Source of the DNA: Promethearchaeota archaeon | GTDB taxonomy: Archaea > Asgardarchaeota > Lokiarchaeia > Sigyniarchaeales > SOKP01 | DNA: 25,061 bases | Reading direction: 5' to 3' | Assembly (NCBI GenBank): GCA_016930515.1 | Contig: JAFGGO010000090.1 | Coordinates: forward strand, 1 to 25,061 | Shown: piece by piece, positions 1,983-20,022 of the stretch | How the letters are laid out: each line of letters begins with the position of its first letter | How positions within the stretch are numbered: the stretch's first letter is position 1 | Program-made: the position numbers and the translations under genes | The notes under the pieces: model-generated | Databases searched by the model: none | What the model was told of the DNA's origin: nothing | The model's input: the letters and a program-made list of their open reading frames with translations, nothing else

Positions 1983-3494
1983 TTGAAAAGCTACGATGCT
2001 ATCTTCATTCATCCCCCGAAAAACACATTAGTTCCCAAAAGTATGAATTCGCATTTCGCAAGAGGGACTTATATTTTCGTTCCAATGGGAACATTTGCAA
2101 TTGCAGATCTATTAGAAAAAGAGGGTTTTAGCGTAAAAATAATTAATTATCCATTGGAAAAAATATTAAATCCACACTGGGATTTGCAAAAACATCTCAA
2201 GGAGTTTGAATTTGAATTATGTGGCATAGATCTGCATTGGTTGCATAATTCTTATGGAGCAATAGAAGTTGCAAAGAGCGTCAAGCATGTTAATCCAAAC
2301 GCCAAGGTTTTATTTGGAGGATTTAGCGCTTCTTATTATCACGATGAAATATTGAATCATTTCAAGGTTGTTGACGGTATCGTACGAGGGGAAGGCGAGA
2401 TTCCTTTTTTACAATATCTTAGGGAATATAAAAAGGGATCTGACCTAAGTAATGTTTCTAATTTAACATATAGGAACACATGTGGAAGTATTAAAGTAAA
2501 TCCCTTATCTTATTGTGCCAAAACCTTGGAAAACCTCAATTTTACAAATCTTTCTTTAATGGATCACGCAAAAGAATACATCGAATCGTGTAAAAAGATA
2601 ATGGGAATACCATTCAATTTATCGATCGGTAGGGGATGCCCTTTTAATTGTCCTTTTTGCTCTGGAGGCCAGCAATCGCAACAAAAATTAACGGGTCGCA
2701 TAAAAGTACTTTTAAGAGATCCAAAAAAAATTCTTGATGATATATCTACTTTATATGATGATTATAAAATAGAAAGCGTGTTTTTTGGTCATGGTACATA
2801 TCCTGCTACTTTTAAATATTGGAAAGAATTGTTTGGGTTAATTCGGAATGAAAAATTCGATATTGGTGGTGATATTGAGATCTGGAGATTACCATTTCCT
2901 AAAGATATGTGGAAATTATATTACAAAACATTTACTCAACAAAATACATCTATTAGCATCTCTCCTAGGACTTTATCTCAAAAAGTTCAGAACATGATAG
3001 CCAAAATATGCGATCCAACTTTTAAATTTCCAGAGAATCAAATCGAGAGCTTAATAAAGAACGCTAATTTATATGGTTTGACATTAAGGATTTGGTTGAC
3101 TATTGGTTATCCGTTTCAGACATTAAAAGATATAATCAAGGATTTTTATTTTACTTACAAATGCTTTTGGAAATATGGATTATCCAAATCGAATTCAATT
3201 ACATTTATGAATGAACCATACTATATTTTCCCAAGCTCCCCCGTACATGAACAACCTGAAAAATTTGGATTAAAATTAAAATATAAATCCTTCCTAGAAG
3301 TAATGAACGCCTTTAAACGCTCAAAAATTTCATTTTTTTACAATATTATCAATTACGATAAAAAACACATGTCTGGAGTTTCAATTCAAAACTTGAATAA
3401 GTTACTTCTGGTTAGTTCAATTCCAATGTTTTTAACAGCAAGCAAGAAGAAAAAAGATAAAAAAAAATTAAAAACAAATCCTCCAGAATTATAG
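1983..3494 (+). CDS. B12-binding radical SAM protein, Ta0216/CloN6-like subfamily
   Basis: N-terminal cobalamin-binding domain with GIDLHW..GAIEVA and FGGFSASYY, then RGEGE and GRGCPFNCPFC. TTG start. Confidence 0.8.
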   Translation: MKSYDAIFIHPPKNTLVPKSMNSHFARGTYIFVPMGTFAIADLLEKEGFSVKIINYPLEKILNPHWDLQKHLKEFEFELCGIDLHWLHNSYGAIEVAKSVKHVNPNAKVLFGGFSASYYHDEILNHFKVVDGIVRGEGEIPFLQYLREYKKGSDLSNVSNLTYRNTCGSIKVNPLSYCAKTLENLNFTNLSLMDHAKEYIESCKKIMGIPFNLSIGRGCPFNCPFCSGGQQSQQKLTGRIKVLLRDPKKILDDISTLYDDYKIESVFFGHGTYPATFKYWKELFGLIRNEKFDIGGDIEIWRLPFPKDMWKLYYKTFTQQNTSISISPRTLSQKVQNMIAKICDPTFKFPENQIESLIKNANLYGLTLRIWLTIGYPFQTLKDIIKDFYFTYKCFWKYGLSKSNSITFMNEPYYIFPSSPVHEQPEKFGLKLKYKSFLEVMNAFKRSKISFFYNIINYDKKHMSGVSIQNLNKLLLVSSIPMFLTASKKKKDKKKLKTNPPEL

Positions 3495-3572: not shown

Positions 3573-4289
3573 TTGGTGTTTAAAGCGAAAAAAATATTGA
3601 AAATCAATGTACTTTTAATCGTAATTTTTTTGCTTGCTGACATCCCATTATCGCTTGTTTTGGTTTATTTAGAGAATATTCCTCCTTTTTTGGCATTATT
3701 TTTTGAGTATGTCGAATGTGGGCGCTCAATTTTTATACCATTTTTTCCAAAAATAAATATTTTAGGATTCTTACCGAACGCGGAAGAAATAACCAAATTC
3801 ACATTTGGACATTTGTTCGACATCATCATAGTAGCTAATTTGATCTTACTCGTAGAGACGATAATATATCATTATTATATCAAGAGGAAAGTGAATAATA
3901 AAAAAATTCAGAAATTAATCGGTTTTCAGATATGTCTTGAAGATTTTATCGATAACCCCTCTCATGAATTCTATCCTGATATGGAAAATTTAGAATCTAA
4001 AGAAGATATCATACAAGTATACTTCAAAAATTCTGCGAATAGTTACCTTTACGATAAAGAATTAGATAGTAATGAAATTCATCTTGTGACTAAAAAAGAA
4101 AAATCAAATTTTTTGATTCCTCGTATTTTTTTAAAATTCCATAAAAAATGCGATATAGGGCTATCTTCGTTAAATTTTAAACCATATTCGCCCGAAAAAA
4201 TATCTATTTTATATTCTTTTTCTAAAGCTTTCCTCGTGAACTGTACTCCTTCTTATCCTTGCATTCAAATTCGAGAGGTGGAGCAATAA
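3573..4289 (+). CDS. Hypothetical membrane protein
   Basis: 238 aa with 2-3 N-terminal hydrophobic segments and a soluble C-terminal half. AGGTG RBS before the TTG start. Confidence 0.6.
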   Translation: MVFKAKKILKINVLLIVIFLLADIPLSLVLVYLENIPPFLALFFEYVECGRSIFIPFFPKINILGFLPNAEEITKFTFGHLFDIIIVANLILLVETIIYHYYIKRKVNNKKIQKLIGFQICLEDFIDNPSHEFYPDMENLESKEDIIQVYFKNSANSYLYDKELDSNEIHLVTKKEKSNFLIPRIFLKFHKKCDIGLSSLNFKPYSPEKISILYSFSKAFLVNCTPSYPCIQIREVEQ

Positions 4290-4401: not shown

Positions 4402-5772
4402 ATGGATTGGAGTAATGAAATGAAAGAAATGTTTGAGAAAGTAATGTCGATGACGCCAGAAACATTTCGTGAATCGATAAAACCAATGTGGAAAGAAGCC
4501 GCTGAAAAAACAGCAACGCTGAGAAACTCGGGTTTTATTTCCAAGGACGATTTAATTTCGTCTTTATTCGAAATAACTCCTCAAGCATTCCAACCGACGG
4601 TAGTTAAAGATTTAGAAACGCTTGGTATCGATACAGATCGTTATATTAAGATATCTGAAGCGAGAAAAGCCTATACTCGAACATGGGACGAGCTCAGCGG
4701 AGCATTTTTACCAGGGGTATATCATTTTACCATATATTTAACTGATCGATGCAATCAAAATTGTCTCCATTGTGCTGCTGCGGTAATGGATAAACGTCCA
4801 GAATTGCCCACGGAGACTTGGATTGATATTATTGAAAATCTTGAACAGAGTTTGCGAAAACAGAATCGAAGAGGATGTTACATATGGTTTGGGGGAGAAC
4901 CTACTATTCGCAAGGATTTAAAAGACTTAATCAAATATTGCGGAGATAAGGGATATTATCAAGCGGTTGCCACAAATGGAATTTTATTTAATGAGGAACT
5001 TGCAAAATTATGTGCAGATGTTAAGATGAGTCACGTCTTTATTAGCTATGATAGTACTGATCCTAAAAGAGCAGCTAAAATTAGAGGGTATCCCAAAGCA
5101 AAAGAAGCCGCTGAAAAAGCAATTGAAATGGCTTCAAAATATGGTCTTTTTATCATTGGCAACGCAACTGCTCAGAAAGAGAATTTCGATGAATTGGAAA
5201 CCCTAAAAAATTATTTCGATTCAAAGGGCGTAATTCCCTATTTTAGACCATTGATCAAGCAACGTTCTGCGGATAAAAATTGGGAAGAAATAGGATTAAA
5301 CATGGACGAATATCGACAATTCTACGATTTCAAATATAAACATGTTATAGAAGCTATCAGAAAGGGAGAAGGTTCAACGCTTAATAAATTCTATACCTGG
5401 GACATGGTGCCTTTCATGGAGTGTCCTATTAACGATAAGGAACGCGCAGCGATAGAATGGGGTACGGGATGTCAGGCGTGCCGTTCTATTTCCGGAATTG
5501 ACATCAACGGAGATGTATTTCCATGTGATTATCCTTCAGAATTAACCTTGGGCAATGTTCTAGAGCAAGGTTTTGACGAAATTATGGAAACAGAAATGTT
5601 CAAGGCTATTAGAGATAGAAAAATAAAGGGAAAATGTGCAACTTGCCATCATCTTGAATTATGTGGTGGGGGTTGTAGAGTTCACGCTGAAAATGAAACA
5701 GGCGATTTTCTGGCACCGTTTCCATTTTGCTGGCATAAAAACACTCATAAACACGAAAATCAAGAAAATTAA
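4402..5772 (+). CDS. Radical SAM/SPASM protein with an N-terminal DUF2621/PCP_red-like module
   Basis: CNQNCLHC, FGGEP and ATNG motifs. SPASM cysteines: GCQAC..GDVFPC..CATCHHLELCGGGC..PFC. Start moved from GTG 4393 to ATG 4402, because AGGTGA at 4391-4396 is the RBS and MDW matches the MEW start of the paralogs. Confidence 0.88.
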   Translation: MDWSNEMKEMFEKVMSMTPETFRESIKPMWKEAAEKTATLRNSGFISKDDLISSLFEITPQAFQPTVVKDLETLGIDTDRYIKISEARKAYTRTWDELSGAFLPGVYHFTIYLTDRCNQNCLHCAAAVMDKRPELPTETWIDIIENLEQSLRKQNRRGCYIWFGGEPTIRKDLKDLIKYCGDKGYYQAVATNGILFNEELAKLCADVKMSHVFISYDSTDPKRAAKIRGYPKAKEAAEKAIEMASKYGLFIIGNATAQKENFDELETLKNYFDSKGVIPYFRPLIKQRSADKNWEEIGLNMDEYRQFYDFKYKHVIEAIRKGEGSTLNKFYTWDMVPFMECPINDKERAAIEWGTGCQACRSISGIDINGDVFPCDYPSELTLGNVLEQGFDEIMETEMFKAIRDRKIKGKCATCHHLELCGGGCRVHAENETGDFLAPFPFCWHKNTHKHENQEN

Positions 5773-5784
5773 AGGCGAGAATAA

Positions 5785-7185
5785 ATGGAATGGGAAAATA
5801 ATACTCAAATCCTCTTTAATAGGATTGTAGAACAAATGCCGCAAGGATTTAGACCCTCAGTTGAACCTTTAATCTTAGAAGCTTCTGAAAAACGATGTCT
5901 TGAACGAAATGGAGCATATATCAATGATGCGGATGTGGTTTTAGGTATTTTTGACATTATCCCCGAAGCATTTAAACCCGTCATGGTCGAGGACTTAACG
6001 GCTTTAGGAATAGATGTGGAAAGATATATCGAACTTAGGGATATAAAAGATAGATTAAAGGTCTCTTGGGAAAAACTAGAACGAGGATTCCATCCAGGAA
6101 ACATTCATTTTGCCATGTATCTTACCGATAAATGCAATCAAAGATGCATTCATTGCGCTGCAGATGATTTAATACCCAGACCAGAATTACCTTCTGAACA
6201 ATGGATCCAAATCATAGAAAATGTCGAAACAGGTCTTAGAAAACAAGGAAGACACGCCTGCTTCGTATGGTTTGGAGGAGAACCAACATTACGTAAAGAC
6301 ATTGGCGAAATAATGAAATATTGCAACGATAAAGATTACATTCACGCCCTTATTACAAACGGCGTTCGATTTGATGATGAATTCGCAAAAATGTGTAAGA
6401 AAAATAATATTAGCCATGTGTTCGTTAGTTTTGATAGCGTTGACCCTGAAAAGAATGATAGATTACGAGGATTTAAAAACTCCTTACAATATGCAAAGAA
6501 AGCCATTGACATGTGTCTTAAATACGGAATTTTCGTTTGTTCTTCCATTACGATTATGAAAGATAATATTAACGAACTTGAAGAATTGAAAGCTTTATCT
6601 GAGAAATGGGGATCTCAACCTTATTTTAGGTGCGTTGTAAAACAAAATCGAGCTGCAGAACATTGGAGCGAAATAGGCCTTTCGAAGGAGGAATATAGAA
6701 AAATGTACGATTTTAAATTTAAACACGCTATTGAAACGATAAGAAATGGTCAGGCTGGAACTCTTCCTGCTTACGAAATCTACGACATGATGCCATTCAT
6801 GGAAAAACCCAAATCGGATAAAGAACTCGCAGCGATCGAATGGGGTGTAGGTTGTTTGGCTTGTAGGACGATGATGGGGGTAGGGATCGATGGTACTATT
6901 TATCCAGCGGGATATCCTACAAATCTAACGCTTGGAAATGCACTAAAAGACAATTTCGAGGATGTATTGAACTCCCAACTCTATAAAGATATTCGGGATA
7001 GAAAAAGGATAAAAGGAAAATGCGCCAGTTGTCATCATCTTGAACAGTGCGGAGGAGGTTGTCGCGTGACCTCTGAATATATCACGGGAGATTTCTTTGG
7101 CTCTTTCCCGTTCTGCTGGCACGAGAACGATCACGAACACGATACAATTGATTTAAAGAAGAAAGAGATTGAATTAATTGAATGA
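5785..7185 (+). CDS. Radical SAM/SPASM protein with an N-terminal DUF2621/PCP_red-like module (tandem paralog of 4402-5772)
   Basis: CNQRCIHC, FGGEP, ITNG, GCLAC and CASCHHLEQCGGGC..PFC. Collinear with the upstream gene over its full length. Confidence 0.88.
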   Translation: MEWENNTQILFNRIVEQMPQGFRPSVEPLILEASEKRCLERNGAYINDADVVLGIFDIIPEAFKPVMVEDLTALGIDVERYIELRDIKDRLKVSWEKLERGFHPGNIHFAMYLTDKCNQRCIHCAADDLIPRPELPSEQWIQIIENVETGLRKQGRHACFVWFGGEPTLRKDIGEIMKYCNDKDYIHALITNGVRFDDEFAKMCKKNNISHVFVSFDSVDPEKNDRLRGFKNSLQYAKKAIDMCLKYGIFVCSSITIMKDNINELEELKALSEKWGSQPYFRCVVKQNRAAEHWSEIGLSKEEYRKMYDFKFKHAIETIRNGQAGTLPAYEIYDMMPFMEKPKSDKELAAIEWGVGCLACRTMMGVGIDGTIYPAGYPTNLTLGNALKDNFEDVLNSQLYKDIRDRKRIKGKCASCHHLEQCGGGCRVTSEYITGDFFGSFPFCWHENDHEHDTIDLKKKEIELIE

Positions 7186-7200: not shown

Positions 7201-8616
7201 GTGCGAGTATTAATTCTCTCGGCTAGTAGGGAAATTGTCCACGTGATGGTTCCTCCATTGGGAGAAGCATATTTAGCTTCATATTTGCTCTCTCGAGGGC
7301 ATGAAGTAATATTATTGGACTTAACTTTGAGTAATGATTATAAAAAAGATATTTCGAACACTATTTTCGATTTTAATCCTCAAGTCATTGGCATTTCGAT
7401 TCGTAACATTGATTCGACTACATATCCGGGAAATTTATTCTTTTATCTTCCCGTGAAAAATGTCATACAATATGTAAAACAGCTCGTTGAACCAGATATC
7501 CCCATAATACTGGGAGGTGCGGGCTTTTCCATTTTTTCGGAAGAAATTCTAAAGGATTTAAATCATAAAATGGGAATCATAGGTGATGGAGAATATGTTT
7601 TCGAGGCAATAATCAAAAAACTTCAAAATGGTGAAGATCCACGCACAATAGAAAGAGGGGTTTGTTATTTGGATAATCAAGGAAATTATCACCAAACTCC
7701 GCCGTGGCGCGTGGAAAATTTAGACGAATTGCCTTTTCCCATAAGGGATATGATGGATAACGACGCATATCTCATTGATCCATTAGTTCAATCTGGACCT
7801 TTTTGGGGAAATATTCAAACTAAACGGGGTTGCCCCATGAATTGCATATATTGTAGTTATAGATATATAGAAGGCTCTAATGTTCGATATCGTTCTCCCA
7901 AAAATATAGCCGAAGAATTAGATTTAATCGTGAATAATTATGATATAAAAAATGTATTCATTGTCGATAGTCTTTTTAATATTGATTATAAACACGTAAA
8001 AGAAACTTGTATAGAAATTAATAATCAAAATTTAGATTTTAAATGGGGCGCAAATTACGTTCCGAGCAATAAATTTATAGATTTAATGCCGCTCATGAAA
8101 GAAAGCGGAGCGGCTCATTTTGCAACTGGAATTGAATCCTTATCCGAAGATATGCTAAAAAATATGAAAAAAAATAGGACTGCTGACGAGGCAATGCTCA
8201 CATCTAAAAGATGTGTAGAATTGGAAATAGAACAATTAATGCATGTAATGGTTGGAGGGCCAGGAGAAACTCGAGAAACGATTCAAGCGTCTTTAGATCG
8301 CTTGGAAATGATGGAAAGCTACCACGGAGCACTTTGGCAAGGGGATGGAGACGTTCTCATCTTCGTGGGTATAAGAATTTATCCTAATACCATCCTTCAA
8401 ACTATTGCAGTAAAAGATGGTATAATAAAAAAAGGAGAAAACCTGTTAAAACCTAAATTTTACCTAACACCGAACATTAAAGAAGTCGATCTTTTTCAAA
8501 TCGTTCGGAATTATGGTATTAAAAATCCCAGGTGGATGATGCCTGGTCTGGGATTTAATAATCCCAAAGGATTTGCTGAAATGAGTAATATACAATTCGC
8601 AAAATATCAAAATTAA
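7201..8616 (+). CDS. B12-binding radical SAM protein, GISIRNID type (BzaD/TsrM/ladderane-cluster-like group); putative C-methyltransferase
   Basis: PPLG, GISIRNID, LGGAGFS, GDGE, QTKRGCPMNCIYC and GGPGET motifs. AGGTGA RBS at 7191-7196 before GTG. Confidence 0.8.
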   Translation: MRVLILSASREIVHVMVPPLGEAYLASYLLSRGHEVILLDLTLSNDYKKDISNTIFDFNPQVIGISIRNIDSTTYPGNLFFYLPVKNVIQYVKQLVEPDIPIILGGAGFSIFSEEILKDLNHKMGIIGDGEYVFEAIIKKLQNGEDPRTIERGVCYLDNQGNYHQTPPWRVENLDELPFPIRDMMDNDAYLIDPLVQSGPFWGNIQTKRGCPMNCIYCSYRYIEGSNVRYRSPKNIAEELDLIVNNYDIKNVFIVDSLFNIDYKHVKETCIEINNQNLDFKWGANYVPSNKFIDLMPLMKESGAAHFATGIESLSEDMLKNMKKNRTADEAMLTSKRCVELEIEQLMHVMVGGPGETRETIQASLDRLEMMESYHGALWQGDGDVLIFVGIRIYPNTILQTIAVKDGIIKKGENLLKPKFYLTPNIKEVDLFQIVRNYGIKNPRWMMPGLGFNNPKGFAEMSNIQFAKYQN

Positions 8617-8662: not shown

Positions 8663-9835
8663 ATGGAATGGAAACCAGAAGTAAAAGAATTATATGATAA
8701 AATAGTAGAAAAGATGCCGGAATTTATAAAACCCGTTATTGCACCAGAGCTTTTGAAAAAGGTCGAGATTAAATGTATAGAAAGGAACGCACAAAAAATT
8801 GCTGAAATGGATTTAATAGTAGGTTTATTTGAAGTAACGCCTCCTACTTTCCAACCAACAGTAATTGCAGATCTGGAAGAAATGGGCGTGTCTTATGATA
8901 GATATCTCGCAAAAGTGAAATCTGATTTTAAATGTAATACTGATCTTAATCAGATGATCGAAGATATTTCTAAAATTTGTGATATTTCAAGTGTAACTTT
9001 CAATAGAGAAGCGATGTGGAAATCTTTCAATACCTTTAAAGATTTTTTTAAGGGTGCTCCCGTTTCGATCAGAACAACCACTAAACCTATTGAAAAAAGG
9101 GATGTAGCAGTAAGATATGTGGAATTTTTTATGCCTCACAATCCAGATCCTTATACCATGGCAATAAAAGAAGGTTTGCTCTTGAAAAATGGACATCCAA
9201 TTCACGAAATGATTATCGAATCTATGAATACTTTCGAAATGATGGGATACGGAGTTGATGTAGATGCAAAGATGGGGCTATCGAAGATTTGGCCTTTTGT
9301 AGTACCTGGTTCGATCGAACCTATTTTTTCAATGAAATCCGTACCGCCAGCATTTAAAAAATACAAGCAATATTTTGAAGAACACGGTTTAACAGTATTC
9401 AGTCTTTTTGCGTTCGACTTTTTAAATCATACAATGAATATTTATTTCATGCTCAAGCAACCAGCGCAATCCACACATGAAAGTTGCGTAAAATTGGTGG
9501 AAGATTTGGGACTTACTCCCGCATCTGAGGAAATAATGGAAGGGTGTCGCAACGCGGCTCATTTAAACTATACATTTAGTTGGGAATCAGGAAAAATCGA
9601 ACGATTATGCTTTGGTGTGACTGTTGATGACGAAAAAGATGTTCCAACACATCTACATCCTTTAATTAAAGAATTCGTTGAAAAAGCCCCCCTACAGAGC
9701 GAATCGAGAAAATTTATTTGGGGCGCAACTTTTACACCAAGAGGAGTTTATTATAAAATTGAAAATGATTACAATGGTACGATGGTGGATTTCTTAGGAA
9801 TGGGATGCAAGGCAGGAATTGAAAAATATAATTAG
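8663..9835 (+). CDS. ABBA-family aromatic prenyltransferase (NphB/CloQ type) with an N-terminal DUF2621/PCP_red-like module
   Basis: After about aa 90 there is a ~300-aa domain with DPYTMAIKEGLL..GHPI, YGVD....GLSKIWPF, MNIYF, YTFSWESGKIERLCF and YYKIENDY. These match recalled NphB/CloQ motifs (DPY..v.kGL...gHP, GfkKty.F, NLYF, TL.W...kI.RLCF, YyKl). Confidence 0.8.
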   Translation: MEWKPEVKELYDKIVEKMPEFIKPVIAPELLKKVEIKCIERNAQKIAEMDLIVGLFEVTPPTFQPTVIADLEEMGVSYDRYLAKVKSDFKCNTDLNQMIEDISKICDISSVTFNREAMWKSFNTFKDFFKGAPVSIRTTTKPIEKRDVAVRYVEFFMPHNPDPYTMAIKEGLLLKNGHPIHEMIIESMNTFEMMGYGVDVDAKMGLSKIWPFVVPGSIEPIFSMKSVPPAFKKYKQYFEEHGLTVFSLFAFDFLNHTMNIYFMLKQPAQSTHESCVKLVEDLGLTPASEEIMEGCRNAAHLNYTFSWESGKIERLCFGVTVDDEKDVPTHLHPLIKEFVEKAPLQSESRKFIWGATFTPRGVYYKIENDYNGTMVDFLGMGCKAGIEKYN

Positions 9836-9864
9836 ATTTGTCTATTTTATAGGTGATTTTTAAA

Positions 9865-11016
9865 ATGAGAATAATAATCGATGGACCAATAAACAAGGAT
9901 TTAATTACTAAAATTAAAAATCAAGGGTTTCCAGTGACACATTGTATAATACATGTGCCACAAAACCCTATGGGAAATTCGTCAATTTTTCTTCCTAAAA
10001 AAATTCCTTCTTTCGATGATTTCAAAGATATTACTTCATTTTTATTAGATAACGATATTATTCCAATTGCTGGATTGGATTCGACTTGTCAAGGGAATCT
10101 TGAGGCTCACATACAGCAATATAATGCAATAAATGCATTAATTCAAACTTTAGAGGCTATAGGTTATAAGGATATATTGGTTTCTTCTCCAAATAATATT
10201 GGATTTTTTAAAGAACATGCGCCATCAATGAAGATTGTTTTATCATATTCACAATATGTAACCTCAATCAATAGGGGTAAAATCTTTTTTGAAATAGGTG
10301 CAGACTCTATTATTCTCCACCCAGATATAATTAGGTATTTTAATATATTGAAGAATTTTATCAAGCTAAAAAAGCAATTTAAATCGTCTAAAGATATAGA
10401 TTATATTTTACCATTAAATATCGGATGTAATTGGGGGTGTATTCATTGGTATCATCATCATAACCTGCAGAGTCATCGTACTACAAATTCTCCTGTTTTT
10501 TCAAATCAAGAAAATTTATCCAATGTTTTATATGAATTTGATTATCCACTATTAAACTGTTGGAGAGAGAGAATTAAAAATCCAGAAAATATTTTAAAGG
10601 CGGGATGGATATCGCCAGTAAATATAGGTAAATACGAGAATTTAGGATACGATACATTTACTCTCTATACGAATGGATTTTCGAACGAAAAAACAATGGA
10701 AATCATCAATAACTATGTTGAAAAGCGAAACAAAATGAGCTTAAAAAACATCATTAACATTCCTGAACCCTATGGAGAATATTGGAAGCAGATGGAAGGC
10801 AAGGACTTTTTGTTCGATTTAAATACATCTGAAATAGAGACTTTTTGTTTGAATTATCCGTATGAAGCTCACTATCCTTCGGAAAAAATCATAAACGAAT
10901 ATTGTAATGATTTTACTAAAATTTTGAAAATAAGAAGCTCTAAAGAAAGAGAAAATGTATTAACAACAATAAAAAATAAAATAAAAAATATGGAAAAAGG
11001 AGCCATTACGAGGTAA
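9865..11016 (+). CDS. Divergent peptidase U32-family (Fe-S hydroxylase-like) protein
   Basis: Aligns with the two downstream U32 genes (LDSTC, NIGCNWGC..H....SH, GWISP...Y..LG). Start moved to ATG 9865, with RBS AGGTGA at 9851-9856. Confidence 0.7.
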   Translation: MRIIIDGPINKDLITKIKNQGFPVTHCIIHVPQNPMGNSSIFLPKKIPSFDDFKDITSFLLDNDIIPIAGLDSTCQGNLEAHIQQYNAINALIQTLEAIGYKDILVSSPNNIGFFKEHAPSMKIVLSYSQYVTSINRGKIFFEIGADSIILHPDIIRYFNILKNFIKLKKQFKSSKDIDYILPLNIGCNWGCIHWYHHHNLQSHRTTNSPVFSNQENLSNVLYEFDYPLLNCWRERIKNPENILKAGWISPVNIGKYENLGYDTFTLYTNGFSNEKTMEIINNYVEKRNKMSLKNIINIPEPYGEYWKQMEGKDFLFDLNTSEIETFCLNYPYEAHYPSEKIINEYCNDFTKILKIRSSKERENVLTTIKNKIKNMEKGAITR

Positions 11017-11020
11017 AAAG

Positions 11021-13060
11021 ATGAGGATATCCTTGGCATGTAATTGGAAATTAGATTTATTAGATTTAATCGAACAAGATTCTAATCTAAAGAATGTAGT
11101 TAATGATTTTTACGGAACTCCAGATATGAATTTTACTGGATCTGGTCGTCCCTTCTTTCTTATGGCGAAAAGAAATAGAAACGAGATTGAAAATTTTATT
11201 AATAAAGTCCACGATTTAGGCTTAAAATTTACTTGGTTATGGAATGGTGAATGTCTTGGATACTATAAATTTAATTCACAAGAGCAAACGAAAGCGTTAA
11301 ACGAATTAGATTGGATAGATGATATGGAAATTGAATATCTAACAGTTACGGATCCATATTTAGCTCAATTTGCCAAATATTACCATCCAAATTTAAAGCT
11401 TAAAACATCTGTTATTGCTGAAATTAATTCACTCACACGAGCACTCCAATGGCAAGATATTATCGGTTCAGAAGGAGTGTTAACTTTATCAATAATGTTG
11501 AATCGTAATTTTCCTTTACTCGAGGAAATTAGAGATACAATAACTTGTGATATCGAATTACTGACTAACGATTGCTGTCTCAACGAATGTCCATATCGAT
11601 TTTTTCATTACAATGAATGTTCACACGCCAGCCAAACGCACGACTTTCTTGAGGGATATTACAATGATTGGGCTTCTATTGCATGCCAGAACCAGAAGTG
11701 CTTCAATCCTGAGCAAGTTATTATGTGTAAATGGATACAACCCTTAGATCTAGAAAAATATATCAATATGGGCATTGATTACTTTAAAATATCAGGTAGA
11801 AGATACGGAACACGCTGGATATTTAACGCTTTAAAAGCATATACTAGCAAAAATTTTAAAGGAAACCTTGGAGAAATTTTTAATGGTTATTCATTTGTCT
11901 CAGATCCCTTGATACTAGCTGGGAACCAATTCTCTGAATTCTCAATAAAGCAGGAAAAAATGGGCACCCACGCCGATAATCAAAGCATAATGTTAAGCGT
12001 ACCAGAATTTGACGCAAAATTAAAAGCTGATTTGTTAATTGACTTCGTACAAAATTTACCTTATGGTGGTGCCCGATGTGCAGAAAATTGCGGTGTATCT
12101 TGCTTTTATTGTCATAGTTACGTTAATAAAGCCTATTTTCAACCAGAAGGAGGTATAACCGAATCTTATAAGAAATTCATGTCCTATCTTTATAATTATC
12201 TGAATAAAGGAGAAATGTTTCTCTCAAAAGAACAAAGAAAACTTAAGAATCCTGTTAAAGAATCGGAATCAAATACTTATATTGGAATTCCCTGGGATCC
12301 TAAAGCACAAGAATTTCTTGATGAAGTAATGATATTGATACCAAAAGAAATGCAAGAGCCGGCAAAAAAAGGAATAGGCTTTACAGCTGAAAGGACTGCT
12401 GAAAAGCAAAATAAAACGAAAGTTAATATCGAGTTATTAATCGCAATAATTCTTGAATTAGTTCCTCAACCTTTCAAACGCGATTATATTGAATTTTTAA
12501 TTGAAAAAAAAATCAAATTATCGAACTATATGAGTGAAGCTGAAATAAGACAAATCAAAAATATACCATTTAGCAACCAATTAATCCCCCTGAAGAATAA
12601 TGAAGGGGAAATAAAAACGAATATAAATAAAATAAAAGAAAAACAAAATAAAAAAAAGGTGAAAATAAAATTGAATACAAAAGAAGAATGGGAAGCATAT
12701 CTCACGCGCTTTATGAAAGCATACAATGAATTACCAGATGTGGAGCAAATGCTTGAACCAATCGGATCGGTGGTATTTCAATATGAAATAACCGATAAAC
12801 CCGAGATGAGTTATTGGCAATACATCAATGGCAAAAAGATGGATTGGGGAATGGGTAAATTTTCTAATGGAGATATTCCAATGGTCATACATAAAACGAA
12901 TTTTGAAACGATAAAAAAAGTAAATTCTGGAGAATCTGACCCCATCCAAGCAACAATGGCTGGTAATTATGTAGTAGAAGGAGATGTTACCAAGCTCATG
13001 GCCTGTGCACCCTTGCTTCCGCTTAATGCGAAAGCGCATGAACAAGTGTTTAAGAATTAA
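11021..13060 (+). CDS. U32-family Fe-S protein fused to a DUF2621/PCP_red-like module and a C-terminal SCP2 domain
   Basis: GSGR, WNGEC, NDCCLNECP, GIDYFKISGR and CAENCGVSCFYC motifs. Module at about 12290-12530. SCP2 signature SGESDPIQATMAGNYVVEGDVTKLM within about 12680-13040. Confidence 0.82.
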   Translation: MRISLACNWKLDLLDLIEQDSNLKNVVNDFYGTPDMNFTGSGRPFFLMAKRNRNEIENFINKVHDLGLKFTWLWNGECLGYYKFNSQEQTKALNELDWIDDMEIEYLTVTDPYLAQFAKYYHPNLKLKTSVIAEINSLTRALQWQDIIGSEGVLTLSIMLNRNFPLLEEIRDTITCDIELLTNDCCLNECPYRFFHYNECSHASQTHDFLEGYYNDWASIACQNQKCFNPEQVIMCKWIQPLDLEKYINMGIDYFKISGRRYGTRWIFNALKAYTSKNFKGNLGEIFNGYSFVSDPLILAGNQFSEFSIKQEKMGTHADNQSIMLSVPEFDAKLKADLLIDFVQNLPYGGARCAENCGVSCFYCHSYVNKAYFQPEGGITESYKKFMSYLYNYLNKGEMFLSKEQRKLKNPVKESESNTYIGIPWDPKAQEFLDEVMILIPKEMQEPAKKGIGFTAERTAEKQNKTKVNIELLIAIILELVPQPFKRDYIEFLIEKKIKLSNYMSEAEIRQIKNIPFSNQLIPLKNNEGEIKTNINKIKEKQNKKKVKIKLNTKEEWEAYLTRFMKAYNELPDVEQMLEPIGSVVFQYEITDKPEMSYWQYINGKKMDWGMGKFSNGDIPMVIHKTNFETIKKVNSGESDPIQATMAGNYVVEGDVTKLMACAPLLPLNAKAHEQVFKN

Positions 13061-13120: not shown

Positions 13121-14527
13121 ATTCGATTCAATGTCGCAACTAACTGGGATTTAAAATTGATTGACGAATTAGCGAAATATCCCGTTTCTGATTTATATGG
13201 TGCATCAAACCATTCTATTGTTGGTGGTGGTCGACCTTCCTTTTTACTTCCAGATGTTAATGATGAATACATAGCAGAATATATTAAAAAAGTGCATGAG
13301 AAAAAAATGGAATTTTCTTTTCTACTAAATGCTCCCTGCATGAATAATATGGAAACAAACTCTCAGTATCATAAGGAACTTATCGATTATTTACAATGGA
13401 TTACTGATATCGGAGCGGATAATGTGATCGTTACGATCCCATTCTTGATACAAATCATCAAAGAACAATTTCCCAACTTGAAAGTTCGTGTTTCAACAAT
13501 TTCACATATAAATAGCGTAAACCGTGCAAAATTTTACGAAATGCTAGGGGCTGATGAAATAACACCTGATATCATGATAAATCGAGATTTTAAAACATTA
13601 AACAAGATAAAGAAAGCTGTAAAATGTAAGATCGTTTTACTTCTGACTGATGGATGTCTTTTTCAATGTCCTTTCAGACACTATCATTATAATACTCTTG
13701 GACACGCTTCGCAAACACACCAACAATTTGAGCGTAATTATGTAGATACATGCATTATTAATTGTTCAGTGATTAAATTTTCAAATCCAGAGGAAGTTCT
13801 TAAATGTAGATGGGTGCGTCCGGAAGATTTATCTCATTACGAAGACATCGGGATTACGGATTTTAAAATCGCGGGAAGGCGAATGACTACTGATTGGATT
13901 CTTAGAGCGGTTAAAGCTTTTTCCTCTCGTAAATACGATGGAAACCTTGTGGACATTATTCAAGGCTTTTCGATGTCTCACGGTGGTTTAGAACAAAAAG
14001 ATCCTAATCTTACACTCTCTAAAACAGTTGGAAAGGAGTCCCAATCAAAATTATACATCGATAATTCAAAATTAGATGGATTTATTGAGTTTTTTAAAAA
14101 GCAAAATTGTGTTGCGATGTGTGATGAGTGTAATTATTGCAAGGAGTGGGCCAAAAAAGCCGTCATATTAAATAAAGAAGAATCGGAAAAATATGTACGA
14201 TCCCTCCAAGCTTATATAGACGATCTTAAGACAAGTAGAGAATTTGGAATTTCAAAAAAGGACTCTAAAATAGAAAAATCGAATGGATTTAAATGGTTAC
14301 CCGAAACAGAAAGATTATTTAACGAACTCATTGAATTATCTCCACAACAATTTCAATCAATCGCCAGAATGGTCATCGCCTCCCTCGCAGAGGAAAAAGC
14401 AAAAAAAAGAGCCTCGTTAGAAGTTCAAAATCAAGATATCGTTAGCGCATTTATTGAAGGTACACCAGGACCATTCCAAGCAGATATGAAGGATGGCCTT
14501 AAAAAACGCGGACTTTTAAAAGAATAA
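13121..14527 (+). CDS. U32-family Fe-S protein with a C-terminal DUF2621/PCP_red-like module; probable ATT start
   Basis: GGGRP, LNAPC, DGCLFQCP, FKIAGR and CVAMCDECNYC motifs. The frame extends upstream of TTG 13157 as (I)RFNVATNWDLKL, homologous to MRISLACNWKLDL. RBS AGGTGA at 13109-13114 and an in-frame stop at 13115. Confidence 0.82.
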   Translation: MRFNVATNWDLKLIDELAKYPVSDLYGASNHSIVGGGRPSFLLPDVNDEYIAEYIKKVHEKKMEFSFLLNAPCMNNMETNSQYHKELIDYLQWITDIGADNVIVTIPFLIQIIKEQFPNLKVRVSTISHINSVNRAKFYEMLGADEITPDIMINRDFKTLNKIKKAVKCKIVLLLTDGCLFQCPFRHYHYNTLGHASQTHQQFERNYVDTCIINCSVIKFSNPEEVLKCRWVRPEDLSHYEDIGITDFKIAGRRMTTDWILRAVKAFSSRKYDGNLVDIIQGFSMSHGGLEQKDPNLTLSKTVGKESQSKLYIDNSKLDGFIEFFKKQNCVAMCDECNYCKEWAKKAVILNKEESEKYVRSLQAYIDDLKTSREFGISKKDSKIEKSNGFKWLPETERLFNELIELSPQQFQSIARMVIASLAEEKAKKRASLEVQNQDIVSAFIEGTPGPFQADMKDGLKKRGLLKE

Positions 14528-14673
14528 CATGGAGGAAAAAAAATTAACCTTATATAGTTTTGGCTCAAAGATTAGCACTATATGAAACCTAAATTTTATA
14601 AAAATTTATGAAAATAAAAAATATCTATAAAAACAATGAATAATTAAAAAAAAAACGAAAAAAAGTGAATAAA

Positions 14674-15603
14674 ATGGAAGGAATATATTTTGATGTCGTA
14701 TTTCCATTAGTATTACTTGCTTGTCTATTATTTTTGATATTACGTGGTATATCTAAAAAATATCCTGAACAAGAATATATGACAAAATCCGAATTTATGA
14801 AGGATTGGCTTAAAGACCACGGACAAGCACATAAGCTAGACGAACAATTTGAAAAAATGCAAAAAGACCCAGCTGGAAAAATATACATGCCATTAACTTA
14901 TAAAGGCGCAAAAATCTTTATGAAAATGGGCCTAACACCAAATCAAGTATCTATTGTAAATCTCATTTTATCGTTCTTTATTTTTTATGGCGTTATTATT
15001 GCTGTAAGAGGACAATCGTTGGATTTATATTCCCAACAACCGTTTTATGGTTGGCTATTTATTCCATTAGCCCTTTTAGTATTCTTTACTGGAATCGTGG
15101 ATGGAATCGATGGAGCAATCGCAAGATTACGAAATATTAAAACACGACGCGGTGGATGGTTCGATAATGTAATTGACAGGATTAGTGATACTTTAATGCT
15201 AGTTTGTTTTGTTCCTGGAACCATTTCTATCGTAATGGGCCTCGATTTTCGATGGGTTGTATGGACTAATATTATCTTGATATTTCTTTATGAATACATG
15301 AGAGCAAGGCACGAAGGATTAGGATTAAAAGAAACTAAACCGTTTATGGGAGAACGAATCACCAGGATATTAACTATGGGAACCTTTTTCTTAATTTACG
15401 GTATCTCGAGTTTTGGCGTTATGATAACTTTTTTGATTGATCCCCCTTCTGCTGAAACGCTTTGGGCAGTAACTCATGGTGGTGTAACGGCTTGGGTAAT
15501 GATAATTATGCAATTGAGCTTGTTATTAATAATGGTCTTTTCGTGTTTGAAATTAGCTAATTATTCTTACAAGGGATTGAAAGAGTTGGATAATAAAGAA
15601 TAA
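14674..15603 (+). CDS. CDP-alcohol phosphatidyltransferase family protein
   Basis: TPNQVS plus the signature DGIDGAIAR-x7-GGWFDNVIDRISD and multiple TM helices. The start is ATG 14674 or GTG 14665. Confidence 0.88.
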   Translation: MEGIYFDVVFPLVLLACLLFLILRGISKKYPEQEYMTKSEFMKDWLKDHGQAHKLDEQFEKMQKDPAGKIYMPLTYKGAKIFMKMGLTPNQVSIVNLILSFFIFYGVIIAVRGQSLDLYSQQPFYGWLFIPLALLVFFTGIVDGIDGAIARLRNIKTRRGGWFDNVIDRISDTLMLVCFVPGTISIVMGLDFRWVVWTNIILIFLYEYMRARHEGLGLKETKPFMGERITRILTMGTFFLIYGISSFGVMITFLIDPPSAETLWAVTHGGVTAWVMIIMQLSLLLIMVFSCLKLANYSYKGLKELDNKE

Positions 15604-15677
15604 ATAGGAGGCGAAACAAAACGAAAAAATTTAAAATAATAACCTATGGAACAATAATTGCAGTATATTATGTATTA

Positions 15678-16973
15678 TTGCATTTTATTTTTCCCAACTC
15701 GTGGGTATCTGTTACTAAAAATTCCATCGATAACTTCTTTACGAATTTTTTTGTATATTGGTGGTTAGTATTTCCGTTACTTGCCCTTCTTTTACTTTTT
15801 GGATTGAATATCTATTATGGGATACATTTTTTGGCTTCATTTGGAACTGGTTATAAACCTAAAGGTGATAATTACGAAAATATTACCATTATGATTGCTT
15901 CCAAGAACGAAAAAGCACTATTGGAAAGAACATTAAAATCCATAATGGATAACGATTACCCTAAAGAAAAGATTCAGTTAATTGTAATAACTAGCGGATC
16001 GACTGATGGATCGGCTGAATTTTGTGAAAAATTTTTCAAACAAAATAATACTATTAAAGCTGATATTATATCTGCCGATCTTCCTAAAAAAGGCAAACCA
16101 ACTGCCCTAAACTATGGATTAAAACTTGTAAAACATGATATAATACTTTTTTATGATTCTGGTTGCATTTTACAAAGAAATTCCTTGAAAAATTTAATTG
16201 CACCTTTAAAAGACCAGAAAAAAAAAGCTGTAATTGGACCCGTATTGGTTGAAAATTGGAACACTAATAAAATTACCAAGGGAATTTTTCTTGATTATGC
16301 AATCGTCTCTGGAGGTGGATTGCTTTTTGAAGTAAAGAATAGGTTAGGTTCTTCTGCATATTTATATGGACGTAATTTTGCGATTCGGACAGAATTATTG
16401 AAAAAATACGGTGGATTTAACGAAGATTCCATGACAGAAGATCTTTATCTTCATATACTGCTCAATTTAGATGGAATTAAGATTTATTATTCACCCAAAG
16501 CAAGAGTATATGAATATGTACCTCATACATCGGAAATATTGAAAAAACAAAGAACCAGATGGATTGCAGGATATACAGTCGATGCGCCCCAATTAATGGC
16601 CATGAAGAACGAAGAAAGAGATGGTAAAAAGATTATTATTGCTAGAAACATGACTATGACTTTTATAGGAAATATGGATACTTGGATGCCAATAATAATC
16701 GTTTTTACAATAATATATGCTCTCATAGGAGAATATTACTTAATGATATGGAATTTATCCCTTTTGTTCTTTCAATTCGGGTTTTTATTCAACGCTATTA
16801 GGAAATACGCTGATGGGCATTATAGTTTATTATTTTACTTTCTTGTTAGCGGTTATATCCACCTATACATGTTCTTACGTCAATTTTCCCTTCCTAAAGA
16901 ATTGAGTTGGGAAAAAACACCGATGATACTAGAAAGACAAGAAGAAGAAGTAAAGGCTTTAACTATTAAATAA
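15678..16973 (+). CDS. Membrane glycosyltransferase family 2 (cellulose synthase/IcaA-like)
   Basis: ASKNE, GSTD, GKPTALN, TED and QRTRW motifs, with N- and C-terminal TM helices ending in WEKT. Confidence 0.85.
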   Translation: MHFIFPNSWVSVTKNSIDNFFTNFFVYWWLVFPLLALLLLFGLNIYYGIHFLASFGTGYKPKGDNYENITIMIASKNEKALLERTLKSIMDNDYPKEKIQLIVITSGSTDGSAEFCEKFFKQNNTIKADIISADLPKKGKPTALNYGLKLVKHDIILFYDSGCILQRNSLKNLIAPLKDQKKKAVIGPVLVENWNTNKITKGIFLDYAIVSGGGLLFEVKNRLGSSAYLYGRNFAIRTELLKKYGGFNEDSMTEDLYLHILLNLDGIKIYYSPKARVYEYVPHTSEILKKQRTRWIAGYTVDAPQLMAMKNEERDGKKIIIARNMTMTFIGNMDTWMPIIIVFTIIYALIGEYYLMIWNLSLLFFQFGFLFNAIRKYADGHYSLLFYFLVSGYIHLYMFLRQFSLPKELSWEKTPMILERQEEEVKALTIK

Positions 16974-17019: not shown

Positions 17020-18468
17020 ATGAAAATATATCTAATTAACGCTGCACCGACGATAATATCCAAAGATAACAAAAAGGAAACTCTATTTCAAACTTCAGCA
17101 CCCCCTTTGGGATTAATGTATCTTGCATCGGCCCTCAAAAATGCAGGACACGCCGTATTCATCGTGGATCAACCGGCCTTCAATCTCACAAATGAGGAAG
17201 TTATAGAATTTATCAAGAAAAAAGATCCGGATGTTGTTGGATTTTCAACATTATGTGCTTCTTTTGAAAATGTAAAAGAAATATCTAAAGAACTAAAAAA
17301 ATGGAACCCTAATCTATCAATTATAGTTGGCAATTATCTTGCCACTTTTTATGCACATAACATATTGACAAAATACGATTGGGTCGATATTTGTGTGAGG
17401 GGTGAAGGTGAAAAAACCGCTCCTGAAATTTTAAATCGATTAGAATCCAATAAAGACCTTAGCGAAGTCGAAGGAATTAGTTATAGAAGCAATGGAAAAA
17501 TAATAGAAAACAAGGACAGACCATTGATAAAAGATTTAGATTCGATTTCTTTTCCAGATAGAAAACTCCTTCCAGCCTTTTATAAAAATAGGATCGGAGG
17601 TGTTGACATTACTAAACGAAAATTTGCAACAATGGTCTCTTCGAGAGGATGCCCTTATTCATGTAATTTTTGCGCTTGTACGGCCTTTTCGAAAGGATTA
17701 TGGAGGACAAGATCTGTTGATAACATTATAGACGAAATATCCATGTTATCAGATGAGGGCTATCGGGAAATTCTTTTCATAGATGATAATTTTACGCTTA
17801 ATCAAAAAAGAATAAATGAATTTTGCATCAAAATTAGAAAGCAAAATTTAGATATTGTTTTTATAGGAGATGGTAGGGTAAATAATGGGTCTGTTGAATT
17901 ATTTAAAACTCTAAAAAAAGCTAACTTTGAAATCTTAATGTTTGGCATTGAAAGTAGCTCCCAAAGAGTTTTAGATTCTTATAACAAAAAAATAACGCCT
18001 GAAATGAGCAGAACCGCGGTAAACAATGCTAGAAAGGCGGGTTTTAAATTTCTTGTTGGGACTTTTATGATTGGTGCTTATGATGAAACCTACCAAGAAG
18101 CAATAGACACGCTTAAATTCATTTCCTCATTGGACATTGATTTTCCACATATAATTTTCACTCGCGCATTACCTGGTACTCAAATTTTCAACGAACTCAT
18201 AAAAAAGAAAATTATTGATGAAGAACAGTTTTGGGAAACAGGTGTAGACATCATCGATTTACCAGGTTCAAAAATGAACAGAGAAGTTATTTTCAAGATT
18301 ATTAAGGACCAATTTCACTTGAAATTTTTTAGACCGAAATACATAATGAAAGCGTTCACAAGAACATTAATAAGCAAGTATAGACGAGAAATAATATTCA
18401 ATCACTTAAATCTTCGAGATATTAATAAATTTGTAAAGATTATTAACAATCCTCCCGATTTATTTTAA
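17020..18468 (+). CDS. B12-binding radical SAM protein (class B methylase-like)
   Basis: PPLGLMYLA, RGEGE, SSRGCPYSCNFC, DDNFT and FGIES motifs. Confidence 0.88.
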   Translation: MKIYLINAAPTIISKDNKKETLFQTSAPPLGLMYLASALKNAGHAVFIVDQPAFNLTNEEVIEFIKKKDPDVVGFSTLCASFENVKEISKELKKWNPNLSIIVGNYLATFYAHNILTKYDWVDICVRGEGEKTAPEILNRLESNKDLSEVEGISYRSNGKIIENKDRPLIKDLDSISFPDRKLLPAFYKNRIGGVDITKRKFATMVSSRGCPYSCNFCACTAFSKGLWRTRSVDNIIDEISMLSDEGYREILFIDDNFTLNQKRINEFCIKIRKQNLDIVFIGDGRVNNGSVELFKTLKKANFEILMFGIESSSQRVLDSYNKKITPEMSRTAVNNARKAGFKFLVGTFMIGAYDETYQEAIDTLKFISSLDIDFPHIIFTRALPGTQIFNELIKKKIIDEEQFWETGVDIIDLPGSKMNREVIFKIIKDQFHLKFFRPKYIMKAFTRTLISKYRREIIFNHLNLRDINKFVKIINNPPDLF

Positions 18469-18495
18469 GATAATAATGAAAAGAGAAAAATATCC

Positions 18496-20001: not shown

Positions 20002-20022
20002 TAATATATATGGATAATAATC

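Follow-up and report, generated by a model that had tools for sequence, protein, structure and literature searches.

An ABBA-type aromatic prenyltransferase within an oxygen-independent iron–sulfur gene cluster of Asgard archaea and anaerobic bacteria

The locus analyzed here lies on a contig of a Promethearchaeota archaeon (JAFGGO010000090.1), whose whole stretch of 25,061 nucleotides is hereafter called the window, and is centered on a forward-strand gene at positions 8663–9835, which the listing of open reading frames (ORFs) and its translation establish as a real ORF encoding a protein of 390 aa. Residues 94–378 of this protein are matched by the Pfam family PTase_Orf2 (PF11468) with an E value of 3.5e-58 and 197.7 bits (cut-off 22), over positions 2–283 of the 287 of the model, and no other PF11468 gene is present in this genome. 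The solved prenyltransferases (PTs) of the alpha-beta-beta-alpha (ABBA) type that it matches at the sequence level with HMMER are AmbP1 (1.6e-37), EpzP (1.2e-36), FamD1 and AmbP3 (about 3e-36), NphB (5.9e-27), and CloQ (4e-13). The AlphaFold2 model of the PT, built from an alignment of 35 homologues, reached a mean predicted local distance difference test (pLDDT) of 95.2 and a predicted TM-score (pTM) of 0.92, and displays ten strands in five hairpin pairs with helices at the flanks and a helical N-terminal domain ahead of them. The top Foldseek matches of this model in the PDB are all ABBA PTs, led by AmbP3 (5y7c; E 2.2e-26; target-normalized TM-score [TMt] 0.92; root-mean-square deviation 2.3 Å) and followed by FamD1, AmbP1, EpzP, NphB, and CloQ, with a TMt of 0.79–0.88 for the last three. 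The original prediction, which had called this gene a CloQ/NphB-family PT-barrel enzyme from its letters and translation, is thus borne out by both the profile match and the fold, and we regard the PT-barrel assignment, as judged on the model, as secure. Overall, the sequence and the model argue for a genuine soluble ABBA aromatic prenyltransferase, probably Mg2+-independent and of the CloQ type. The family assignment as such is already known, as NCBI labels related proteins from metagenome-assembled genomes (MAGs) "aromatic prenyltransferase."

The residues that line the active site of this PT were identified from a HMMER alignment to EpzP read against PMC3485228 (with a chain numbering offset of +2, backed by eight residues), and their conservation was counted in the 35-sequence homologue alignment. 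In EpzP, the diphosphate pocket is formed by R49, K117, R232, K283, Y174, and N172, and W119 shields the carbocation (PMC3485228). All of these residues are matched in the window's PT (R137 = R49, K208 = K117, R314 = R232, K365 = K283, Y261 = Y174, N259 = N172, and W210 = W119), to which the equivalences R151 = R62 and E367 = A285 can be added. Eight of these positions (R151, K208, W210, N259, Y261, R314, K365, and E367) are invariant in 35/35 homologues, and the R137 column holds Arg in 29 of the 35, Arg or Lys in 31, and Asp in none. Since EpzP R49 occupies the site of the Mg2+-binding Asp of NphB (PMC3485228), the Arg found at R137 constitutes a Mg2+-independent signature, which suggests that the window's PT works without a metal. 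The lone match to the (N/D)DxxD motif, DDEKD at residues 322–326, falls within a loop and is not kept by the homologues. The position of EpzP Y220 is taken by Asn302 (Tyr in 17 of the 35 homologues), with Tyr303 adjoining. With regard to the acceptor, EpzP A285 has been equated with CloQ E281 (PMC3485228), a residue that holds the phenolic hydroxyl and takes the proton, and the E281Q mutant retains 1% of the activity (PMC3485228; PMC5371340). By way of EpzP A285, the invariant E367 falls at this catalytic-base position, and because of the conserved residues, E367 included, a CloQ-like mechanism acting on a phenolic acceptor is plausible.

Ahead of the barrel, the protein carries an N-terminal extension of about 90 aa, which the original prediction had presented as a new fusion. 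The extension is real, as about 110 close orthologues, all from Promethearchaeota (Asgard) MAGs and all of about 390 aa with the N-terminal module, share with the window's PT the 390-aa length and a start in "MEW," but it is neither unique to the PT nor to archaea. Indeed, residues 1–88 match the N-termini of both neighboring radical S-adenosylmethionine (SAM) enzymes with a SPASM domain (hereafter rSAM/SPASM) with E values of 3e-15 to 3e-16, and the same module recurs at the C-terminus of one U32 protein and internally in a U32–SCP2 protein, while bacterial homologues of the PT bear it at either end. A profile search of the 4.0-Mb genome recovered exactly five copies, all in the PT cluster: one on the PT, one on each rSAM/SPASM enzyme, and one on each of two U32 proteins, the first of which also bears SCP2. 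Against the DUF2621 (PF11084) cut-off of 27.7 bits, the PT module scores 22.6, the U32 copy 28.5, and the others 18–25, the copy of the U32–SCP2 protein having no DUF2621 match in Pfam; a module-bearing relative gave a sub-threshold match to PCP_red (PF08369) at 28 bits. Modeled alone (pLDDT 89), the module comprises five helices and a two-residue beta pair. VIA-align related this fold to AAA+ lid domains (Z 7–8; BchI/AAA+ lid, Z 8.1) and to the nuclear magnetic resonance structures of PCP_red, 2kru and 2l09 (Z 6.0). Foldseek with the module alone returned nothing at E <= 0.001, and the best E value of the module profile against PDB sequences was 0.096.

From a wider perspective, the module was matched by 236 representatives in a collection of 1.8 billion proteins at E <= 1e-3, which makes it usable as a genome-mining handle. 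Many of these proteins are stand-alone modules of 80–100 aa, and the rest are fused to PT, rSAM/SPASM, U32, U32–SCP2, SCP2, or LuxC–rSAM/SPASM, in neighborhoods rich in genes for B12-binding radical SAM enzymes, SCP2, LuxC/LuxE, and aldehyde:ferredoxin oxidoreductase. Two such contexts are worth describing: in one locus (L075, 7420–12850) the module stands within a LuxE–LuxC–(LuxC–module–rSAM/SPASM) operon, and in another (L076, 3774–23315) it stands in a cluster with B12-binding radical SAM genes, SCP2, two aldehyde:ferredoxin oxidoreductases, and a polyketide-cyclase-like protein. Both suggest a wider role of the module with anaerobic enzymes of hydrophobic substrates. Natural fusions also connect the PT itself to its partners. 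P0272, a 762-aa metagenomic protein, unites a PT-barrel (13–293), the module (318–399), and an rSAM/SPASM domain (428–732) in one chain, a Rosetta-stone link from which it follows that the PT and the neighboring SPASM enzyme act together; and P0060 and P0041 (536 aa) are SCP2–module–PT fusions with SCP2 at the N-terminus. These last two proteins and P0061, also of 536 aa, are 61–66% identical to the window's PT, the domain scan having covered P0060 and P0041. On this basis, we see in the module a putative pathway-specific adaptor, and in its sharing a clear example, open to testing, of a pathway whose enzymes are marked by one small domain.

The gene had also been noted to sit among Fe–S enzymes, and this it does: its neighbors are two rSAM/SPASM enzymes, B12-binding radical SAM enzymes, and three U32 proteins (table 1). 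The core order runs B12-binding radical SAM enzyme, small membrane protein, rSAM/SPASM enzyme 1 (SPASM1), rSAM/SPASM enzyme 2 (SPASM2), second B12-binding radical SAM enzyme, PT, divergent U32, U32–module–SCP2, and U32–module, and nine related Asgard loci keep this core, some of them with SCP2 as a separate gene. Beyond the Asgard archaea, PT homologues are nearly always found beside the same rSAM/SPASM gene, across archaea and bacteria, this adjacency being kept in Thermoplasmata, Bacillota, Aminicenantes, Thermoanaerobaculia, and Deferrimicrobium. In a Pseudobacteroides sp. MAG (L062), the cluster is enlarged by genes for a 3-deoxy-D-arabino-heptulosonate 7-phosphate (DAHP) synthase (14777–15826 of that locus), a NUDIX hydrolase, and a HemN-like radical SAM enzyme, all of which lie inside this bacterial version along with three U32 genes. 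Some Asgard genomes hold, in addition, a second, paralogous, and more compact cluster of the form SPASM–PT–U32like–U32/SCP2–SPASM (L024 = G030:C76; L025 = G186:C102), and one of these genomes (G030) has two PT genes on one contig, about 47–50% identical to the window's PT. As for the ORF at the place of the small membrane protein, its residues ~24–105 alone (probably 2–3 membrane helices) are conserved, always between the first B12-binding radical SAM gene and SPASM1, and the 238-aa ORF may greatly overestimate the length of the actual gene.

Table 1. Features of the window (positions are those of the window)
Feature	Position	Strand	Evidence and remarks
Aromatic prenyltransferase (PT) gene, 390 aa + stop	8663..9835	+	Module then PT-barrel
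PT-barrel catalytic domain, residues 94–378	8942..9796	+	Ten beta strands, five alpha-beta-beta-alpha units (DSSP of model); Foldseek
PT-barrel key residues	R137, R146, R151, K208, W210, N259, Y261, R314, K365, E367		EpzP mapping and conservation counts
Putative adaptor module, residues 1–88	8663..8926	+	Five helices and a tiny beta pair; DUF2621/PCP_red-related; Pfam DUF2621 E 1.1e-4
B12-binding radical SAM enzyme	1983..3494	+	Conserved cluster member
ORF with conserved hydrophobic N-terminal ~80 aa, probably a small membrane protein	3573..4289	+	tblastn matches in 8 related loci, E 1e-16 to 2e-5
rSAM/SPASM enzyme 1, N-terminal module (4402–4662)	4402..5772	+	Nearest named families AhbD, NirJ
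rSAM/SPASM enzyme 2, N-terminal module (5785–6042)	5785..7185	+	
B12-binding radical SAM enzyme without module	7201..8616	+	Best NCBIfam match TIGR04072 "lipid biosynthesis B12-binding/radical SAM protein," E 5.4e-81, below cut-off
Divergent U32-like protein without module	9853..11016	+	Pfam U32 E 0.028 (weak); tblastn cross-matches with U32 paralogue
U32–module (12290–12547)–SCP2 (12689–13057) fusion	11021..13060	+	
U32 protein, C-terminal module (14288–14524)	13157..14527	+	Pfam U32 E 3.8e-13; DUF2621 28.5 bits vs 27.7
CDP-alcohol phosphatidyltransferase and GT2 glycosyltransferase	14665..16973	+	Near cluster in related genomes; position and orientation vary
Three tandem B12-binding radical SAM genes, BchE/HpnJ-like	17020..21459	+	E down to 8e-62; outside conserved core

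The presence of one small domain on several tailoring enzymes that are unrelated but share a cluster could be read in terms of a peptide-derived cofactor, or of a ribosomally synthesized and post-translationally modified peptide (RiPP), in which case the acceptor of the PT would be a Tyr (or Trp) of a precursor peptide and the module would recognize its leader as a functional analogue of the RiPP recognition element (RRE) or PqqD, as in the maturation of pyrroloquinoline quinone and mycofactocin. The module does occupy the N-terminal site at which rSAM/SPASM maturases carry their RRE, its stand-alone versions of 80–100 aa recall PqqD or MftB, and the SPASM enzymes of the window match the PqqE and MftC models with E values of 1e-27 to 1e-33, PqqE being their best PDB match. 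We nonetheless deem such a pathway quite unlikely, as the cluster is tightly packed and its intergenic gaps hold no conserved small ORF that might encode a precursor peptide, as the module is all-helical with no PqqD/RRE chain among the fold matches listed (which does not by itself exclude that family), as the repeated SCP2 and LuxC fusions and the links to lipid enzymes point to lipid-like substrates, and as a DAHP synthase gene lies within the bacterial cluster. The same SPASM enzymes have as their top NCBIfam matches AhbD, NirJ1/2, AhbC, and NirJ, one of the downstream B12-binding radical SAM proteins matches BchE (E 8e-62), and the module is weakly similar to the PCP_red domain of protochlorophyllide reductase subunit B, all of which could evoke the tailoring of a porphyrinoid that these enzymes would modify and the PT would prenylate. 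Yet these NCBIfam scores are far under their cut-offs (about 130 bits vs 500–650), a search of this 94%-complete genome recovered no ALAD/HemB, the PT has the active site of a phenol-type ABBA enzyme, and the associations with SCP2, LuxC, and DAHP synthase fit a tetrapyrrole badly, so that we judge this reading very improbable. The BchE/HpnJ-like genes in question, three tandem paralogues, were not found beside the core of any other Asgard locus that was examined.

A further feature of the Asgard loci is the pair formed by a CDP-alcohol phosphatidyltransferase and a GT2 glycosyltransferase, which lies mostly within about 10 kb of the core, in varying position and orientation. Since the former resembles archaetidylinositol-phosphate synthases (E 2.6e-19), and since one B12-binding radical SAM enzyme of the core has TIGR04072 as its best match, SCP2 is present, and GDGT-MAS is the second-best PDB match of SPASM1, the cluster could alternatively tailor membrane lipids, the PT prenylating a lipid-linked or head-group acceptor in place of a quinone-like molecule. 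Against this, the shifting pair is missing from those bacterial versions that were examined, the aromatic-PT active site is invariant, its CloQ-type catalytic Glu included, the combination of U32 and SCP2 mirrors the ring-hydroxylation machinery of UbiU/V/T, and DAHP synthase is linked to the cluster; membrane-lipid tailoring therefore seems unlikely to us. Overall, the peptide, membrane-lipid, and tetrapyrrole readings are less well supported than a pathway in which a phenol is prenylated.

With regard to its distribution, the contig is archaeal, as had been proposed from the sequence, in that its nearest homologues and same-family genomes are Promethearchaeota/Promethearchaeia MAGs. Among the 201 sampled genomes of the phylum, the gene is present in 12, all in the window's own family (the window's genome counted), and in no genome of any other sampled family. 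Some MAGs that one submitter (isolates DZ*/TM*) assigned to Hermod-, Thor-, or Hodarchaeota comprise contigs of genomes of the window's family, as in the case of the 39,989-base G057:C27, recorded as Hermodarchaeota; these phylum names look unreliable and are thus not taken as evidence of a wider Asgard spread. Outside the Asgard archaea, the PT is found in GTDB species representatives, namely on a Thermoplasmata chromosome and in Deferrimicrobium, Pseudobacteroides and other Bacillota, Omnitrophota, Aminicenantes, Thermoanaerobaculia, and Anaerolineae. In all, its bacterial hosts span at least eight anaerobic phyla, and the records of the 46 loci from species representatives all describe MAGs or uncultured isolates, none a named cultured strain. 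Homologue searches of the protein collection returned this anaerobe clade only, and a maximum-likelihood tree was inferred for its PT domains; NphB, CloQ, EpzP, and Fnq26 are not part of this tree, which is unrooted and compatible with transfer in either direction, as well as with both origins put forward in the original prediction, horizontal acquisition and a deep lineage. It splits into two sides, each supported by a Shimodaira–Hasegawa-like approximate likelihood ratio (SH-aLRT) of 99, with the Asgard clade on one and Thermoplasmata mixed with bacteria on the other. On the Asgard side, the module is N-terminal save in one module-less sequence, the first to branch, and one SCP2–module–PT fusion, and on the other side it is C-terminal, N-terminal, or absent, a pattern that takes a minimum of four architectural changes to explain. 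The family appears to have spread across many anaerobic phyla.

On balance, we lean toward the interpretation that the PT C-prenylates a shikimate-derived phenol in an O2-independent, adaptor-organized pathway to a quinol-like prenylated lipid. The prenyl diphosphate would be held by the basic residues, the Tyr, and the Asn of the pocket, and Trp210 would shield the allyl cation, which would then attack a phenolic acceptor anchored through its hydroxyl to Glu367; deprotonation of the sigma complex by Glu367 would result in C-prenylation ortho to the hydroxyl. The 88-aa module would stand outside catalysis, as an adaptor borne by five enzymes of one conserved O2-independent cluster, whose two B12-binding radical SAM enzymes and divergent third U32 lack the module. 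Starting from the shikimate-derived phenol, then prenylated by the PT, the AhbD/NirJ-like rSAM/SPASM enzymes would trim or rearrange the side chain of the phenol, the U32 proteins would hydroxylate the ring without O2, and the B12-binding radical SAM enzymes would C-methylate it, yielding a quinol-like prenylated lipid whose hydrophobic intermediates might be carried on SCP2, as they are by UbiT and UbiJ. The module, for its part, might dock the enzymes to the SCP2 carrier or to each other, or else cap their hydrophobic pockets as a lid. Our data show the fold and family of the PT, its catalytic residues, the sharing of the module, the conserved cluster, and the fusions, while we infer the acceptor, the chain length of the donor, the order of the steps, the product, and the binding partner of the module. 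It is speculative that the two AhbD/NirJ-like enzymes replace the O2-dependent side-chain trimming of the CloR type, and equally a matter of speculation that the cluster draws on a single prephenate node, as the original prediction had suggested, for which indirect indications come from the DAHP synthase of the bacterial cluster and from the chorismate synthase and chorismate mutase encoded in the window's genome.

Several observations weigh against this pathway, or against parts of it. The carboxylate of 4-hydroxyphenylpyruvate (4-HPP), the substrate of CloQ, forms salt bridges there with Arg160 and Arg176, and the site of Arg176 is tentatively placed, by an approximate offset from Y261 (= CloQ Y174), at about residue 263 of the window's PT, a Met; because of this apparent Met, 4-HPP is not specifically indicated, so that from the CloQ substrate raised in the original prediction we retain the phenolic acceptor, in line with the invariant E367, and not 4-HPP itself. 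The fold matches of the module are weak and generic, within the range of chance for helical domains, and the PT occurs without the module in some bacterial loci, from which it follows that the module is not essential to PT function as such. The gene is patchy within the window's family (11 of its 40 other sampled genomes), as would be expected of accessory metabolism. Finally, quinone-interacting membrane subunits of the NuoH (PF00146), NrfD, and NarI/HdrE types were not found in the 94%-complete genome, which argues against a respiratory quinone. A prediction of the complex between the full PT and the SCP2 domain scored 0.00, and speaks neither for nor against docking of the module to SCP2.

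A role in respiration, considered as a candidate, was set aside for this lack of support from partner genes, and an accessory lipid or metabolite is favored over a core respiratory quinone because quinone complexes were not found, because the distribution is patchy, and because the family has apparently spread across anaerobic phyla. A bolder form of the prenylated-phenol pathway, which we find doubtful though possible, would make of it a mobile O2-independent route to a new prenylated quinol-like lipid (a redox carrier or antioxidant) in Asgard archaea, some Thermoplasmata, and many bacterial phyla, run by a soluble metabolon gathered around SCP2 through the adaptor, with an ABBA PT in the role of UbiA. 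To our knowledge, membrane-bound UbiA enzymes carry out the prenylation in all known isoprenoid-quinone pathways. Were the product indeed quinone-like, it would extend the known isoprenoid cofactors and show that such molecules can be made by a further, soluble route; it would also inform the membrane and redox biochemistry, still poorly known, of the Asgard archaea, the closest prokaryotic relatives of eukaryotes.

Characterized PTs of the NphB/CloQ type act on naphthols (NphB), dihydrophenazines (PpzP/EpzP), or 4-HPP (CloQ/NovQ). The literature places ABBA PTs in the secondary metabolism of bacteria and fungi (PMC3485228). Our literature search found no description of an ABBA clade in Archaea or strict anaerobes, of the shared module, of the natural fusions, or of the O2-independent cluster. 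What stands out here is a conserved ABBA clade in Asgard archaea and in strict anaerobes of both domains, inside an O2-independent Fe–S cluster, and tied to lipid-carrier chemistry by its SCP2–module–PT and PT–module–SPASM fusions. Overall, our observations point to an as yet undescribed route, common to Asgard archaea and many anaerobic bacteria, by which a prenylated aromatic lipid would be made.

Among known enzymes, the window's PT resembles the Mg2+-independent CloQ/NovQ of Streptomyces aminocoumarin biosynthesis in its PT-barrel fold (Foldseek E 1.5e-17), in a basic residue that stands in place of Asp/Mg2+ at the diphosphate site, in the Glu base, and in the K-x-W and N-x-Y motifs. It differs from them in its sequence (about 22–23% identity), in its additional 88-aa module, in that no Arg is seen at the Arg176 site (by the approximate offset), and in its setting, an O2-independent radical SAM/U32 cluster of an archaeon and strict anaerobes, when CloQ lies beside the O2-dependent CloR. 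Its closest solved relatives are AmbP1, AmbP3, and FamD1 of cyanobacterial hapalindole/ambiguine biosynthesis and EpzP/PpzP of phenazine biosynthesis (E 1e-36 to 1e-37; 27–30% identity; TMt 0.86–0.92), and the diphosphate ligands of EpzP are all conserved in it; these relatives are, however, stand-alone enzymes of about 300 aa that belong to aerobic secondary metabolism and act on indole isonitrile or dihydrophenazine acceptors, and the position of E367 is held by Ala in EpzP and by Asp in AmbP1. The module, in turn, is akin to DUF2621 and PCP_red, in that it scores at or near the DUF2621 cut-off and has a fold that resembles 2kru/2l09, but it has two additional helices at its C-terminus, the similarity is weak, and neither family has an assigned function; moreover, it is fused to PT, rSAM/SPASM, U32, and SCP2 proteins, whereas PCP_red is found on a nitrogenase-like reductase.

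At the level of the whole system, a close parallel is offered by UbiU, UbiV, and UbiT, established (bioRxiv 10.1101/587956) as paired U32 Fe–S proteins and an SCP2 protein that act on a prenylated phenol without O2. Together with the UbiJ/UbiK metabolon, this system of the Pseudomonadota shares with the cluster its U32 and SCP2 proteins and the gathering of soluble enzymes around an SCP2 carrier of hydrophobic intermediates. The U32 scores of the window are weak (30–50 bits), and no downstream quinone-dependent complexes were found in its genome. The predicted prenylation falls here to a soluble ABBA enzyme instead of the membrane-bound UbiA, rSAM/SPASM and B12-binding radical SAM enzymes stand where the Ubi system has UbiD/X and SAM methyltransferases, and the adaptor module shared between enzymes has no counterpart in that system.

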